DNA of 64,000 nucleotides. It comes from Neodothiora populina. Lineage: Eukaryota. Made by a program: the position numbers and the translations under genes. Below, piece by piece: positions 34,603-42,289 of the stretch. Each line of letters opens with the position of its first letter. Within the stretch, counting starts at the first letter, position 1. The notes beneath the pieces were generated by a model. The model was not told where the DNA came from. It was given only the letters and a program-made list of their open reading frames with translations, and did not search any database. The stretch covers positions 186,001 to 250,000 of the forward strand of contig NW_027191413.1 of the NCBI RefSeq assembly GCF_041146345.1, written 5' to 3'.

Positions 34603-35374
34603 TCAAATGAACCTCGCGCCATCCGAACCACCACTACTTCCACCACCGCCATGTCTCAGTGCATCTTCGGGTCGGAGGTCGGAGCGGATGGGTTGGATCA
34701 GAGGGTGCCATTGGGCGAGGAACGTGATTGCTTTTTTTTTTGGGTGTTAGCTGGTTTTCTTTTTCTTGTCTTTTTCTGTTTCTGTCGTTGTTGTCGAGGT
34801 GTTCGCCGGGGTTGTTGGCTGGACAGCTTCTGACGTTGAAGACGAGGAAGAAAAGAAAAGAAAATAAAGGGAGAAGAGACGTACCCCACATGAGATAGCA
34901 GCTCCAGGCGGAGAGAATGAGAGTCGATCTCCAGAGTCTGTTGTTTCGATGTCAGTAGATGTTCCATATCTCAGCAAGCCTCCCCCTTTCCTCCTCTCCC
35001 ACTCTCAAAAGCGATCAGAGGAGCAAAGAAGCAAAGCAGGAGGATAGAAACAGAAAGAAACATACGTCTGGTTATCACCCTTGGGACTCGCGAACCACGA
35101 GACGGCCGAAAAGGCAACTATGAAGGCCAGGCCTATTATGATGCTCCATCTGTTTGGTCGCCTGTCAGTATTCTTGCTTGGAGCTAGGCTTTGCTTTGCT
35201 TTGCTTTTGCTGGGTCTTGGCTTGTGCGCGTGTGTTGTGCTCATTGCCTTCCGTTTGGCGGTATAGACGTTCTTCTGGCCGTGACTGCTTGGCTGGGCTG
35301 GAGGAGGCGTGAAGAGTACATGGATGGATGGGAGAAGAGGCAAGGATGTATAGCTCGGCTTACCCGTTTGCCAT
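34603..35374 (-). CDS. VMA9: V-ATPase V0 subunit e; four exons
   Basis: The spliced product is MANG|WSIIIGLAFIVAFSAVSWFASPKGDNQT|LWRSTLILSAWSCYLMW|AITFLAQWHPLIQPIRSDLRPE...RFI*, which contains the PKG and CYLMWAITFLAQWHPL signatures. Confidence 0.93.
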
Positions 35375-35665
35375 GATGTGCGCGTTATGAGTCGTGGGTG
35401 AGTGGTAGACAAGAGAGGAAGATTGGTCTGATTGAGTCGATTGTCGTTATGTGAGGCGTGGAGTTGTGACTACTATAGATGAGACGGTGGAACAATACCT
35501 TGCGGTAGCTGCTGCTTGTGCTGCTTCCTACGTAACCACTCGACCAGGCATGATTGAAGTCGCTCGGTCGGTGGAGTGCACGGGCCAAGTCACAACCCAC
35601 TCTACCCAGTCCACTGTTCTTTTGGTCGTTGATATCTTATCGAGGATCGTGCTTAGTCATCCCAA

Positions 35666-35777
35666 GGAGAGATGGCCGAGCGGTCTAAGGCGCTAGCTTA
35701 AGGTTCCTGTGCTATCCATCAGCACATCAACATATCGCTAGTCAGAAATGGCGTGGGTTCGAATCCCGCTCTCTTCA
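35666..35777 (+). tRNA. tRNA-Leu, anticodon AAG, with 32-nt intron (35704-35735)
   Basis: Acceptor stem GGAGAGA/TCTCTTC, D-arm GCC-GAGCGGTCTAA-GGC, anticodon stem CTAGC/GCTAG with TT-AAG-G, variable arm, and T-loop GGTTCGAATCC. Confidence 0.93.
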
Positions 35778-35788
35778 ATATCCTTTCA

Positions 35789-35874
35789 GCACTATTGGGT
35801 TAGTGGTAAACTTGGTCGTTGCCAGCTTTCGCAGCAATCTCGACCAGCCCCGTGTCCGATTCACGGATGGTGCA
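35789..35874 (+). tRNA. tRNA-Gly, anticodon GCC, with 15-nt intron (35825-35839); T-loop variant TCCGATT
   Basis: Acceptor stem GCACTAT/ATGGTGC, D-stem GGTT/AACT, anticodon stem GGTCG/CGACC with TT-GCC-A, T-stem CCGTG/CACGG, and discriminator A. Confidence 0.87.
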
Positions 35875-35878
35875 GTTC

Positions 35879-35886
35879 TTTTTTTT
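35879..35886 (+). terminator. RNA polymerase III terminator (T8) after tRNA-Gly
   Basis: Run of eight T starting 5 nt after the tRNA-Gly discriminator base. No run longer than T3 lies between the two tRNAs. Confidence 0.8.
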
Positions 35887-36455
35887 GTTTCTTTTCCTCT
35901 TAGTGCTTCTGGTTTGCAATATTCGTTCTTACTTTTGATCTTGGTTGGCATGTCATGCACACGCCTGGTAGATGTTCTGTTGTTCTAGGGATTGCTAGAG
36001 CTGATCAAAGGGCTGGATATGCTTGCTAGTGCAGTAGGAGTTGCGTTAGACACTCAGGATAGTATTACAGGTAAATTTACAGAAACACGTGCGTGAAAGC
36101 GACAGTATAAGTGTGAACGATTTGATCGATCTTCACTCTTATACGCTGAGATGCACAGCAGAAGACAATTGCAGCTGCAGCGATTCAAGAGTATATATAC
36201 ACCGTAGCTGCCTCTATACAACAATGACTGACTACTCTCTCCTGTCCCTCTAAGCCTCTCTGAAGAAGCAGGCTGCTGGAAAGATACGAATCCATGAGAG
36301 AAGAGATGTCCTCGAATGCTACCGTTTCCACGCCCCCCTTTCTATACTCTATACCTCTGACCATTGATATCCCACCACAAGCCAAGCCAAGGAGACTTGA
36401 ATCCGATCGACCCATAACAGAGCAGAGAAAAGAACAAGGATACGAAGACAGACAC

Positions 36456-37436
36456 TTATACTCTCTTCTTGCTCCTCGTCTTAGCCTGCTTCTTGCCATT
36501 CGACCCAGCAGAAGCAGCAGCAGTAGTACTACTACCACGCTTACCGTTCGCAGGGGTTAGCCTCGCGCAGAGCCGTCCGAACATGTCTACGCCCATGAAG
36601 ATTGCTTTTTGTCGTATTAGCTACTATGACTATGCGTCTGCTAAAAGCGCCATGGAAGCAGAGAGGAACAGAAAAGAAAAACCACTCACAAAGCATCAAA
36701 TACGGCACATACAACTTCCCGAGCTCCAGCTTCTCAACATCAGAGACCACAGTCCAAGACATGTAGTCTGCGATGCAAGTGATGGTCGTGATGGCTGTTT
36801 GAGTCGCGTAGACCAGAAGGTGGACTGGGACGAGGGGGTCGTCTTTTTTGGTATCGTTAGTATTTCCGCCAGGAGTGTGTGTGGGGAGGGAGGGGGAAAA
36901 AGGACTTACTGCGTAGTAGTGCGCCTAGAGACCATACGCTCAGGGGCACGTGGTAGAGGAGTTCCATGTACATGTAGGTGTTGAACCATGCTCTGAGTAT
37001 ACACAAATTTCAGTCCGACGCTGTCCTTTCATTGTAACATTATAACAAGAAAAAGGGGGAGAGACAGAGTGAAAGGGAGAGCATACGGCGGCGCAACAAA
37101 GAATTGATCCCGATAAGTCTCGACGTAGTACGTCCTCAGATCAGTCAAGAAGGCGGGTTTGAGTTTCGCCGGGTAGAGAGGCGTCAGGTCGACGACTGGA
37201 ACATGTGCATGTATCAGTTCTTGTGGTTCAAAGATAATCCGATACAGTCATCTTCTCTCCGCAGGGCGATGGTAGGCCGGTGGACATATATCCCCGATGT
37301 AAAAACAAGAAAAGGAAAAGAGAAAACACCCACGAAACATAACAACGAGATGAATCCCGAAAAACACAAAATACAGCAGATCCTTCTTACGCGTCCATAT
37401 CGTCGTCTCCGGATCAGACGTTGTCGTTCGCGCCAT
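36456..37436 (-). CDS. EXPERA-domain ER membrane protein (Ema19/TMEM97-like); five exons, not represented as a single ORF in the track
   Basis: The spliced product is ...KKDLLYFVFFGIHLVVMF|LVDLTPLYP...YYVETYRDQFFVAPP|AWFNTYMYMELLYHVPLSVWSLGALLR|NDPLVPVHLLVYATQTAITTITCI...LYVPYLML|SIFMGVDMFGRL...SKKRV*. All phases are consistent, and it ends in a KKxx ER-retrieval signal. Confidence 0.88.
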
Positions 37437-37988: not shown

Positions 37989-40900
37989 TCATCTCAAGGC
38001 ACTCGCGATCCTGGCCCGGAGGATATCAACCATCTCTCTGTACCTCTCCTCGACGTCTCCGCTTCTGACCAGCTGTGAGAGTACGTCTTCGACACCCACG
38101 GCGGCGTCTTCACTGCCAAAGGGTGCGGCTTCGCCTCTTCTCTCCGAAGCGAGATACCACTGTTGCGCCAAGTAGACGATCTCACCTGCGATCGATTTGC
38201 GGTTTCGGGGAGCATCAAAGGGCGCCTCGGCGGAATAGTACATTTGTTCCAACACTGGCAGTAATGACTCGGCTGGGGTCTCGAGTTCAAGAAACAAATC
38301 CAAGACCCAGTGGTCGGGGCCGACGCCTCTTTGGTACTCGAGTGCGTAGCGCTCCAGCATTGGCAGAAGAATCGATACGGGAAATGTGGCTTCGGCGCGG
38401 TGCAGGCGCGCACCTAGTGTGCGTGCTTTGAGGGCGACAGCTTCATAAGCAAGAGGACCCGATTCGCCGGCTGCTTCGGTCTGTTCGTGGGTTTGTTGGA
38501 TCAGCGCTTGCCACGTCGAGGCGATATCGGCAGGGTTACGGTGGTCGGCGACGTTGTAGATGAGAATGCAGATGTCGTAGTAGCCGGCTTGATCAGCGTA
38601 CTGGTTGAAAAGCTCGTCGAGAGGCAGGATCTCGCCGTCGAGAGAAGCCAAGACCTGAGGTCGGCGTTCGGCGCTGAGCCTCGGCTCTGCCTTCATGCGC
38701 TGCAGGATATCATCCTGGATGTTTGCGACGTCAAGGAGATCGGTAATCTCACGAAGTAATTGTTGTCGTGACTGCTGTGCGTCCAGCAGAGATGTGGTAC
38801 GTATGGACGCGTTGGTCCTGGCTCGGCTCAGGTGTCCAATGCGCGTCTCCAAATCCAAGGCGAAGCCGCCTTTGGCCAGTAACAATTGCACCGAAGCAGC
38901 TTCGAGATAGTTGTGGTGATGTGCGTAGTATCTCCACAGCAAATTTGCGTGTGCAGGGTCTTTGTCCATGCGTCTGCGTAGGTAGCTGACCACGTACGGT
39001 GAGCTGATCTCGAGAAGTCTCTCGTTCCAGCCTTGGCTCATGTACCAGTCGTAAAGATCCGTCTGGAAGACCTCGTCGTCCGAGTTGTCAATGACGTCGT
39101 AGGCCTCGATTCGTCGTTGTGCGGTGACGGTCAGGTGTCCATCCGTCTGATCAGGGCTTTGATTGCCAGACTCGTCCACGGCCATGATGACATTGTGAAT
39201 GAGTTCGTAGCAACGCTTTCTGCTCTCAAAGGCGGGCTTGCGAGGGTCGTCCTCTGGCGAGTTGTCCCGTATCCAAGACAAAGCTCTGTTAGCACGATCG
39301 GACTCGTGGGCAACGTCGAGCGACAAGAGAACAGCGCCGGCGTAGAAAGCCATCGAGATGTACTGCGTGATGGCCCAATCGAGCTGCTCCATGGACAATG
39401 CGGCGGCGACTTTTCGGAACAGGCGCAAACTCTCGTTGAGCAGCATCCTTCCAGACTCGGTGCTGGGACCGGCTTCGGAGGCTCTCTTGACTTGCTCTTG
39501 CGCCTTGAAGATTACAACATCGTCGGCACTACAGAAGCTGCCGCATCTCCTACGCAGCGCCTCTGCGACCTGATCCACGTTGGAACCGTTTGCGATGTTG
39601 CGGTTGACAATGGCCTTGACGAGCTCCTTGGCCAGGTTTCTGCCATCCGAGGTGCAGAAGAGACCTTGGTAGCTGAGCTGTCTCGCACGTTGTCTCGAGT
39701 TGTCGGGTAGCGACAAGAGAACCTCGTCGACACGCTCGTCGAAAAGAACAAGCACAAAGGCAATGCCCTCGATGATGCTCGAGGTGAGCTGGAGAAGTGA
39801 AGTCATCGCTCGGTGCTCGCCCTGGAGTGCAACCTCTTCCTGCTTCGTGGAAACTCGACCCAGTGACTCGGGTCCCGCCAGGCCCTCGATCGAGCTCTTG
39901 TTTTTCTCCAAAAACTCTTGGAGAGAAGTCAACGCGCGCTGGATCCGGTGGAGTTTTGACAGAGGGATCGTAGATAGTACAGCCAAGCCGCCGGTCGGCG
40001 ACAACGCTTCCGTCACAATGGGCGCCTTCCAGATGGATCGCACAACTCGGGCAATGTACCAAGACATGCCTTCATGGCGAGGGGAGGGTCTCACATTCTC
40101 GATGGCAGGCGTGTTGTTGTCGAGCACCGAGTTCTCGTTGAGCATGGGTTTTCCTCCATGCTCGATGAACGTCGCTCGGGCAAAATCGATGACGTCCGGA
40201 TCGGTGATGTTCGCGACTCTGTTGTCGGTGCCGACTTCTGAACCTTGTCCACACGCGACGGCCAGAGCAGTGGCTGCGGTCTCAGTCCTGCCGTACATGC
40301 GGGCGAACCTCCGGATTTCTCCCTCTCTTCCCTCCTTGTCTCCACCACCTCGGATCGCTGCGGCGAAGACATCGACAAGCCTCCTTCTGCGGACGGTCTG
40401 CACTCCAGTACTAGTGAGAATGGCGATCTCCGTGGGGCTGTGATCAAATTGGACGGCGAGTTCGTTTGCAAAGCCTTGCGGCACAGAAGCAGCGCCAAAC
40501 GGAGGGCTGACTTGGCCGACACCTTGTGAGGGATAACCCAGCTCAATCCACTGGCCGAACTCGGGGAATTTTGTGGTCTGCGTCGTCTCGAGCGGCAGTC
40601 TTATCCTGCCAGAATCGGGAGCGGAAAGAAAGACCCTGTCTCTCGCAGGCTCCACTCTGTTTTCGACGATGCATACAGAGAAGCCCGGGGGGTATCGCGC
40701 GCCGCCCTTGGCAGGGAACAAATAACGGGAATTAGGATCGAGCTGTGGAGCGAGAGCGGGGTAGGCGATGACTTGCGAGGACTGCGCCTGCGGAGCGTGG
40801 TCTGGCGACGAGGGATCCTTGGGAGGAAATCGAATGTGATGGACCTGCATACTCGAAGGAGCGGATGAGGCATTGGAGTTGTAGAAGGTAGCAGTCGTCG

Positions 40901-42038
40901 TGCTCAGGAAGATGCGACAACCAGTGTTGGTCAGAGCTTGGAGACTCAGTCGCGAGGATTCGGTCGAAGGGATGGGGCTGATGGAGACAAGGCGAGATTC
41001 CCTGCCGAACAGGTCTGTATTCCGAGGAACCATGTGCGCAATGGAAGCCTGGAGGTTGGCGTAGGTGCGCGTCAGAGCGGGCGTCAGCACATTGCCTTGC
41101 TTTAGATGGTAGACGCGTATGGTGGAGGTGGAAGAGAGAGCGTATAACAAGTCGCGCGTGTCGTCAATCTCGAGCTGGACCGTGTGCTCCAGGGGCGGTT
41201 GAGCAGAAAAGACAGCAGGCAGAAGAGCGACGACGGCAGAAGCTGTTCCTCTGCTGGTGTGGCAGATTTTCGAGGTGCGCGGAGAGAACCAGCGCTCTTC
41301 CTGCTGATATGTCAATTCGTACACGTCTTCACTCCCCCGTCCGGCAAAGAAGATACGGCCAGTCTTGGGCGAGCCCTCGATGAAATGCACGGCGAGACCC
41401 TTGACGGGCACCGACATGCGTGTCGAGTAGAGGGAAATGGTCGTCGTGCCGCTCGGAGTGCTCTGGGCAGAGACGCCGATGAGAATGACCTCTGCCACCG
41501 TGGCGACAACGAGGACATGTGTGATGGACGGCACGAAGACTCCTGCCCGCGGCTTGACCAGCTTGACGGCTGTGATTGCGTTTCCCTGCTCTTCGTATCC
41601 GATCAACTCTGGCGTCGGCTCCGTGTAGTTCCACAGATACAGCGAGTTGTCGACAATGACGGCGGCGTGCTGGATCTCTGCAAACAGACTCAGCGTCGTC
41701 GACACCTGAGCCAGGTTGGCCTGTTCGATGACGGCCTCGGGGATGTTGTAGTGTTTCCCAACAGCGAACGGCTTCCAAGCTGGTGTCTGTGGGAGCTCAT
41801 ATTCCGAGGAAATGCCCTGTCCGACGTATCCATCCAGCTCTGGGTATCGCAGCTCGTTGATCAGCGCCTCGTTTATGCTCCTCGACGCCAGGTCGATGGA
41901 CGATTGGTTCGATTGACTCGCGCCGGGTGCGTGTGAGGGAAGAGGAGCAGGAGGTTGGGGCTGCTGTGTTCGTGCCACTGGCGCTGGGGTTTGTGGAAAG
42001 GCGCCAATCCCCCGACGAGCTGGTGTTGAGGGCACCAT
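37989..42038 (-). CDS. NUP170: Non-repetitive nucleoporin Nup170/Nup157 (Nup155 family), intronless
   Basis: About 1350-aa ORF with a beta-propeller region (IVDNSLYLWNY, VKLVKPRAGVFV, GRIFFAG, VYELTYQQEERWF) and a helical region (LRRRCGSFCSADDVVIFKAQE, NLLWRYY). The start is placed at the first ATG (MVPSTP). Confidence 0.93.
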   Translation of the reverse strand: MVPSTPARRGIGAFPQTPAPVARTQQPQPPAPLPSHAPGASQSNQSSIDLASRSINEALINELRYPELDGYVGQGISSEYELPQTPAWKPFAVGKHYNIPEAVIEQANLAQVSTTLSLFAEIQHAAVIVDNSLYLWNYTEPTPELIGYEEQGNAITAVKLVKPRAGVFVPSITHVLVVATVAEVILIGVSAQSTPSGTTTISLYSTRMSVPVKGLAVHFIEGSPKTGRIFFAGRGSEDVYELTYQQEERWFSPRTSKICHTSRGTASAVVALLPAVFSAQPPLEHTVQLEIDDTRDLLYALSSTSTIRVYHLKQGNVLTPALTRTYANLQASIAHMVPRNTDLFGRESRLVSISPIPSTESSRLSLQALTNTGCRIFLSTTTATFYNSNASSAPSSMQVHHIRFPPKDPSSPDHAPQAQSSQVIAYPALAPQLDPNSRYLFPAKGGARYPPGFSVCIVENRVEPARDRVFLSAPDSGRIRLPLETTQTTKFPEFGQWIELGYPSQGVGQVSPPFGAASVPQGFANELAVQFDHSPTEIAILTSTGVQTVRRRRLVDVFAAAIRGGGDKEGREGEIRRFARMYGRTETAATALAVACGQGSEVGTDNRVANITDPDVIDFARATFIEHGGKPMLNENSVLDNNTPAIENVRPSPRHEGMSWYIARVVRSIWKAPIVTEALSPTGGLAVLSTIPLSKLHRIQRALTSLQEFLEKNKSSIEGLAGPESLGRVSTKQEEVALQGEHRAMTSLLQLTSSIIEGIAFVLVLFDERVDEVLLSLPDNSRQRARQLSYQGLFCTSDGRNLAKELVKAIVNRNIANGSNVDQVAEALRRRCGSFCSADDVVIFKAQEQVKRASEAGPSTESGRMLLNESLRLFRKVAAALSMEQLDWAITQYISMAFYAGAVLLSLDVAHESDRANRALSWIRDNSPEDDPRKPAFESRKRCYELIHNVIMAVDESGNQSPDQTDGHLTVTAQRRIEAYDVIDNSDDEVFQTDLYDWYMSQGWNERLLEISSPYVVSYLRRRMDKDPAHANLLWRYYAHHHNYLEAASVQLLLAKGGFALDLETRIGHLSRARTNASIRTTSLLDAQQSRQQLLREITDLLDVANIQDDILQRMKAEPRLSAERRPQVLASLDGEILPLDELFNQYADQAGYYDICILIYNVADHRNPADIASTWQALIQQTHEQTEAAGESGPLAYEAVALKARTLGARLHRAEATFPVSILLPMLERYALEYQRGVGPDHWVLDLFLELETPAESLLPVLEQMYYSAEAPFDAPRNRKSIAGEIVYLAQQWYLASERRGEAAPFGSEDAAVGVEDVLSQLVRSGDVEERYREMVDILRARIASALR

Positions 42039-42289
42039 TGTCGTGTCGTCGAAGAGAGGGAGGGATGGTGTGCGGAGAGCAAAGAGAGATGGAAGAGATG
42101 GATTGTCTGGAATCGTTACTTGCAACTGCGAAAGTCGCGACAAAGTCCCGCCAAGCAAAGCGCGTCAATGTTCCTTCCCATTGTTGAATATTATTATTGT
42201 CAAGTTTGGGGGAAGCTTCAAATGCATAAATATGGCCCGAGCTTGAACTGCACTCTTACTGTACTAGACTACCTAAACGTTTGTCTTTA

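Follow-up and report, generated by a model that had tools for sequence, protein, structure and literature searches.

The stretch of DNA analysed here, 64,000 nucleotides that we call the window, holds exactly two tRNA genes when both strands are scanned by ARAGORN with introns allowed (ARAGORN -i): a tRNA-Leu(AAG) at 35666-35777 and a tRNA-Gly(GCC) at 35789-35874. Both lie on the + strand, and 11 nt separate them. With its default settings, that is without introns, the program returned no tRNA gene in the 64-kb window. In ARAGORN -i both genes carry an intron, each inserted one base 3' of the anticodon, the canonical 37/38 site. These calls agree with an earlier note on this DNA, which had described two complete intron-containing tRNA genes in the same orientation with 11 nt between them. 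Twenty dinucleotide-shuffled copies of the window gave a total of 3 calls under ARAGORN -i, or about 0.15 per 64 kb, so that a false call placed 11 nt behind a true tRNA gene, and on the same strand, is very unlikely.

The first gene is divided by ARAGORN -i into an exon 1 at 35666-35703, with the anticodon at 35700-35702 and the A box, a 32-nt intron at 35704-35735, and an exon 2 at 35736-35777, whose variable arm is long, whose T-arm/B box is canonical (GGTTCGAATCC) and whose discriminator is A. It scores 45.3 bits against the Rfam tRNA model (gathering score 29), the alignment placing an insertion of 37 bases in the anticodon loop. Judged by its Rfam score, long variable arm, T-arm and discriminator, tRNA-Leu is a canonical gene. 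Its A-box region reads TGGCCGAGCGGTC, and both this and the B box appear intact against what we take to be the consensus motifs. An AT-rich patch is read from the sequence at 35632-35640 (+ strand), 26-34 nt 5' of tRNA-Leu. On general knowledge of Pol III promoters, it is a possible TFIIIB/TATA-like site serving the whole unit.

The letters between the two genes (35778-35788) read ATATCCTTTCA, exactly as the earlier note had given them. A scan of 35600-35900 for runs of at least three T residues found a T4 at 35620-35623, 5' of tRNA-Leu, and, inside the unit, one T3 in the spacer (35784-35786) and another in the tRNA-Gly intron (35827-35829). Nowhere across 35666-35878 is a T-run longer than 3. 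The end of tRNA-Gly is followed by a 4-nt trailer, GTTC, and then by a T8 (35879-35886), the two together occupying 35875-35886; a further T3 and T4 come after the T8. The claim that T-runs between the genes do not exceed 3 and that a single T8 follows tRNA-Gly thus stands. With a longest T-run of 3, the 11-nt spacer is, as read from its letters, free of a Pol III terminator, and the T8 is the only one assigned to the unit.

The second gene consists of an exon 1 at 35789-35824 with the anticodon at 35821-35823 (called by ARAGORN -i and covered by multi-copy contigs from four sequencing runs, described below), a 15-nt intron at 35825-35839, placed by both ARAGORN and a constrained fold, and an exon 2 at 35840-35874 with a 4-nt variable loop, a T-loop reading TCCGATT (35855-35861) and discriminator A. 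All four stems are completely paired in the ARAGORN structure, G-U pairs being limited to one at most in the acceptor stem and one at most in the D stem. The variable loop and the discriminator match what we take to be the identity elements of eukaryotic tRNA-Gly. When the gene is constrained to a cloverleaf, its predicted fold reaches -27.6 kcal/mol, against a minimum of -28.5 kcal/mol. In that constrained fold base pairs form between the intron and the anticodon (UUGC with GCAA), and the 3' splice site sits in a 3-nt bulge. Pairing of anticodon and intron, together with a bulged 3' splice site, is the usual design of eukaryotic pre-tRNAs.

Two features of tRNA-Gly are unusual. A search of 351 bases with the Rfam tRNA model (RF00005) gave no match to it, even at E<=10. 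Furthermore, position 55 (35856), normally a pseudouridine in tRNA, is a C, which breaks the universal U54-U55-C56. The C is also one of three departures of the tRNA-Gly B box from what we presume to be the B-box consensus. The 15-nt intron and C55 have probably lowered the Rfam score between them. PMC7566577 counts U55 as one of the highly conserved residues of tRNA.

To place the locus among other sequences we used assembled contigs of public sequencing runs. In a run search with 37 sampled words, only X1 (organism A, DNA) holds half or more of the words, at a share of 0.65; each of the six RNA runs on record holds about 2 of the 37, and none more than 2. The search turned up no RNA run of organism A. 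X1 is from the same species as the window and may be the window's own sample. Runs X3 (organism B), X7 (organism D) and X8 come from other organisms and have small word shares. Contigs of all four were aligned to 34800-36600 at 80% likeness; in X3, X7 and X8, the parts of this stretch left uncovered reflect divergence, not absence.

Contigs over 35794-35874 stand at about 6 times single-copy depth in X1 and about 11 times in X8. Over the tRNA-Gly intron and exon 2 the depth is 183.9 in X1 against about 30 on the flanks, 2006.8 in X8 against 182.5, and 40.9 in X7 against 6. From these depths the tRNA-Gly family seems to number some 6-11 copies per genome. Within the gene, the contigs of all four runs list differences at two positions only, 35838 and 35839, the last two bases of the intron: here the window reads TC, and the multi-copy contigs of all four runs read GT. 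On this comparison the TC ending, next to the 3' splice site, is a private intron variant of the window copy. At 35856 no difference is recorded among the listed contigs that cover tRNA-Gly, from four runs and four differently coded organisms. It is from this absence of listed differences that C55 seems to be the normal state of the tRNA-Gly(GCC) family in the four organisms.

These contigs bear on the standing of the gene itself. The failure of the Rfam model to match at E<=10, and a C at a position where U is near-universal, would both be expected if tRNA-Gly were a decaying or non-functional tRNA-like relic riding behind a working tRNA-Leu. We consider this very unlikely, as the four stems have kept their full pairing, with no more than one G-U in the acceptor stem and one in the D stem, and the intron still shows the expected anticodon pairing and bulged 3' splice site. 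Moreover, contigs from four runs cover the exons, position 55 included, at roughly 6-11 times single-copy depth with no exon difference listed. Exons free of listed differences at multi-copy depth point to purifying selection on a gene family, not to decay of one copy.

Since tRNA-Leu and tRNA-Gly are both multi-copy, their juxtaposition could in principle be an assembly artefact in which repeated tRNA sequence was collapsed or mis-joined, and among the listed X1 contigs none spans the whole pair and none has the exact spacer of the window. Against this, X1 contigs with no other letters cover both unique flanks, one spanning 34800-35694 and running into tRNA-Leu, the other spanning 35808-36600 and running out of tRNA-Gly; the latter carries the private intron ending of the window copy. 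In addition, separate short contigs in X1, X7 and X8 join the 3' end of tRNA-Leu to the 5' end of tRNA-Gly. An artefact is accordingly the least credible account of the pair, and we regard it as extremely unlikely.

The junction contigs among those listed are record 3 of X1 (72 nt, at single-copy depth), records 14 and 15 of X7, and records 20 and 21 of X8 (74 and 60 nt). They start at 35748-35753, in the 3' part of tRNA-Leu, and run over the spacer to 35815 in tRNA-Gly. Their spacers are up to 8 letters longer or 3 letters shorter than the 11 nt of the window; calculated from the listed insertions and deletions, they measure about 8 nt and about 19-20 nt in X7 and X8, and one X7/X8 junction spacer comes after a tRNA whose acceptor stem differs in its 3' strand. 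These contigs hint that the Leu-Gly tandem recurs both within the species and in two further organisms, with sides (25-30 letters in tRNA-Leu, 27 in tRNA-Gly) that fall under the bridging threshold of 31 letters. Elsewhere the genes are found apart. In X3 the listed tRNA-Leu copy has a T7 about 20 nt downstream and no tRNA-Gly after it, and tRNA-Gly copies with the same exons follow unrelated upstream sequence in record 10 of X3 (35787-35883; 97 letters, 5 differences, 0 gaps) and in record 5 of X1.

Every X1 contig listed over the tRNA-Leu intron (35704-35735) and the spacer (35778-35788) is a variant: one, about three times as deep as single-copy sequence, departs from the window by 9 letters and 7 gaps, and another, of single-copy depth, by 4 letters and 4 gaps. 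Such variants could stem from gene conversion, a paralogous tandem or filtered records.

The neighbourhood of the pair is informative about the host. An ORF on the - strand at 37989-42164 encodes a 1391-aa protein that Pfam matches identify as a Nup170-type nucleoporin. Its best named matches are from Delphinella strobiligena (75% identity) and Aureobasidium melanogenum (63%), with other Dothideomycetes at about 58%. Judging from these matches, the host is a member or a close relative of the Dothideales (Dothideomycetes, Pezizomycotina). An Atlas look-up of the nucleoporin gave its nearest clusters the label Mucoromycota, which we rejected in favour of the protein matches since it is based on 2-5 recorded members. 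On the other side of the pair, the start of a second - strand ORF (35005-35469) faces the tRNA genes at a distance of about 200 nt, which would put the tRNA unit in the likely promoter region of this ORF. Its product has a weak, sub-threshold match to ATP_synt_H, a V-ATPase subunit family (E 7e-4; 20.5 bits, cutoff 25). A contig of X7 aligns to the neighbouring gene at 34878-35155 and, past a joint, picks up again with 27 letters from 35663, a weak sign that a tRNA-Leu gene lies at the orthologous place in organism D.

The features described above allow us to address how the two genes may be expressed. The earlier note had proposed a dimeric Leu-Gly unit of Pol III, and the DNA fits that proposal in its single strand, 11-nt spacer, lone T8 and canonical leader boxes. 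We regard it as probable that the pair is a dimeric nuclear tRNA gene, transcribed by Pol III as one RNA. Co-transcription is the most likely reading of the absent internal terminator, taken together with the yeast precedent. In S. pombe, a tract of 3T served as the control with 100% readthrough, and tracts of 5T-8T terminate (PMC3592421). With no terminator before the T8, tRNA-Gly would be transcribed whenever tRNA-Leu is.

In the pathway that we propose, TFIIIC would bind tRNA-Leu(AAG), the upstream gene, at its canonical A and B boxes and place TFIIIB on the AT-richer DNA 5' of the gene, and Pol III would start a few bases 5' of 35666. The polymerase would meet no oligo-T in tRNA-Leu, the spacer or tRNA-Gly and would terminate only in the T8, giving a primary transcript of about 220-230 nt with both tRNAs and both introns. 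A cut by RNase P at the 5' end of tRNA-Gly would separate the halves. The 3' end of tRNA-Leu would be finished by RNase Z or a Rex1-like 3' exonuclease, and removal of the 32-nt and 15-nt introns would fall to the splicing endonuclease and ligase, with two working tRNAs as the expected outcome. The predicted structure of the RNA is compatible with this scheme. The minimum-energy fold of the 209-nt dimer (-65.2 kcal/mol) has two separate tRNA domains with the spacer unpaired, and the cloverleaf-constrained folds lie 0.7-0.9 kcal/mol from the minimum. Two independent tRNA domains and a single-stranded spacer are what RNase P and RNase Z need.

Alternatively, the two genes may be adjacent and largely autonomous, with tRNA-Gly transcribed from its own internal promoter and TFIIIB assembled over the 3' end of tRNA-Leu. 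RNA read through from tRNA-Leu would then be a by-product and not the main source of the tRNA-Gly made at this locus. The standalone tRNA-Gly copies with the same exons in organism B and in the window's own species speak for such autonomy, suggesting that the A and B boxes of tRNA-Gly suffice for expression elsewhere. We nevertheless think this arrangement unlikely, if the most credible of the alternatives considered here. A polymerase that has initiated at tRNA-Leu has no terminator until the T8, and dimeric RNA would be made when tRNA-Leu is active. The DNA about 40 nt 5' of tRNA-Gly is the GC-rich T-arm of tRNA-Leu, which TFIIIC would also occupy. Assembly of TFIIIB on a GC-rich upstream gene is penalized in vivo, and the trailer of the S. 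pombe Ser-Met pair relies on the promoter of its leader, as stated by Acker et al. 2008 (PMC2566860).

The textbook examples of dimeric tRNA genes are Arg-Asp of S. cerevisiae and Ser-Met of S. pombe. In the S. cerevisiae Arg-Asp gene the spacer is about 10 nt and one precursor is cut into two tRNAs. The dimeric unit favoured here resembles it in that two different tRNA genes share an orientation and the only terminator stands behind the second of them. The putative unit differs in the identity of the tRNAs, Leu(AAG) and Gly(GCC), in the introns of both, and in its host from the Dothideales (Pezizomycotina). In Arg-Asp, Rex1 is the enzyme that matures the leading tRNA at its 3' end (PMC3866640). 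With S. pombe Ser-Met(i) the locus shares an intron-bearing leader tRNA and a second tRNA close behind; here, unlike there, the trailer has an intron as well, so that two splicing events would follow. Mutations in the A or B box of the S. pombe Ser-Met leader drastically cut transcription (Willis et al. 1984, as cited in PMC2566860).

The tandem arrangement as such is not new. In hemiascomycetous yeasts, tandem tRNA genes are described as 'quite common': Debaryomyces hansenii has 17 of them, spacers can be as short as 3 nt, and tandems have also been noted in surveys of filamentous ascomycetes (PMC2566860). The novelty claimed for the locus by the earlier note therefore does not stand, and it is only the particular Leu(AAG)-Gly(GCC) pairing that we did not find in print. 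In the papers that our literature search reached, no Leu(AAG)-Gly(GCC) tandem in filamentous fungi is described, and the available text of Acker et al. 2008 (PMC2566860) names no Leu-Gly pair. Like the hemiascomycete tandems in that text, the present unit has a terminator only after the second gene and a very short spacer. The same text reports that neighbouring yeast genomes have tandem pair types in common, and the Leu-Gly junction contigs in two other organisms fit such sharing. It also describes the dicistronic tRNA-5S rRNA and tRNA-RUF70 genes of Yarrowia lipolytica, in which a leader tRNA drives a closely following gene; the second gene of those units is not a tRNA, whereas both are tRNAs here. 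To the fungal dimeric tRNA genes the locus would add an example from the Pezizomycotina with introns in both halves. Its practical value is small: natural tandem units show that the host can process tRNA-spacer-tRNA transcripts, on which tRNA-based expression of guide RNAs in filamentous fungi depends.

We also looked for similar arrangements in metagenomes, using a pattern scan for a canonical T-arm followed at a short distance by a D-loop and anticodon loop of the Gly(GCC) type. The scan gave 83 loci, and ARAGORN was run on all of them. Most are dense, intron-poor tRNA clusters, some with encoded CCA, and in none of the 83 did ARAGORN find an intron-bearing Leu-Gly pair like that of the window. 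Three loci (L047, L050 and L058) have a Leu(AAG) followed 20 nt on by a Gly(GCC). We rejected the L047 pair as a dimer because its spacer opens with a T5, so that the two genes look separate.

Among the 366 tRNAs called by ARAGORN in the 83 metagenome loci, 8 have a C at position 55, and our literature search found no report of a C55 tRNA-Gly in a fungus. Given the agreement of the contigs at 35856, C55 may be the normal state of tRNA-Gly(GCC) in the Dothideales. Going further, one could imagine that the Dothideales keep a small, conserved family of Leu-Gly dimers with a C55 tRNA-Gly as the trailer, the leader promoter offsetting the weak promoter of the trailer; we offer this as a speculation that is more likely wrong than right by a wide measure. 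If true, piggy-backing on the leader promoter would relax the double, otherwise universal constraint on position 55, that is, TFIIIC binding and the structure of the tRNA elbow. A C at this position cannot be pseudouridylated, and it leaves the tRNA-Gly B box off consensus. C55 in the tRNA-Gly(GCC) of this lineage would be a more unusual point than the tandem itself.

Two further observations were made in the metagenome loci. C55 is also present in phage-like or bacteria-like tRNA clusters with encoded CCA (L013, L001, L009, L016, L039 and L041), in tRNAs of the types Gly(GCC), Gly(TCC), Glu(CTC) and Asp(GTC), three of them within L013 alone. At 646-796 of L047, and also in L050 and L058, all from a marine metagenome, the Gly(GCC) that lies 20 nt behind Leu(AAG) has no intron, and only 5 nt (TTCCT) separate it from a Met(CAT) with a T4 behind it. 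The tRNA cluster around this Gly-Met pair in L047 is dense and eukaryote-like, and one of its members is a Tyr gene interrupted by a 20-nt intron; the pair is a further candidate for a dimeric tRNA unit, this time from an unrelated lineage.
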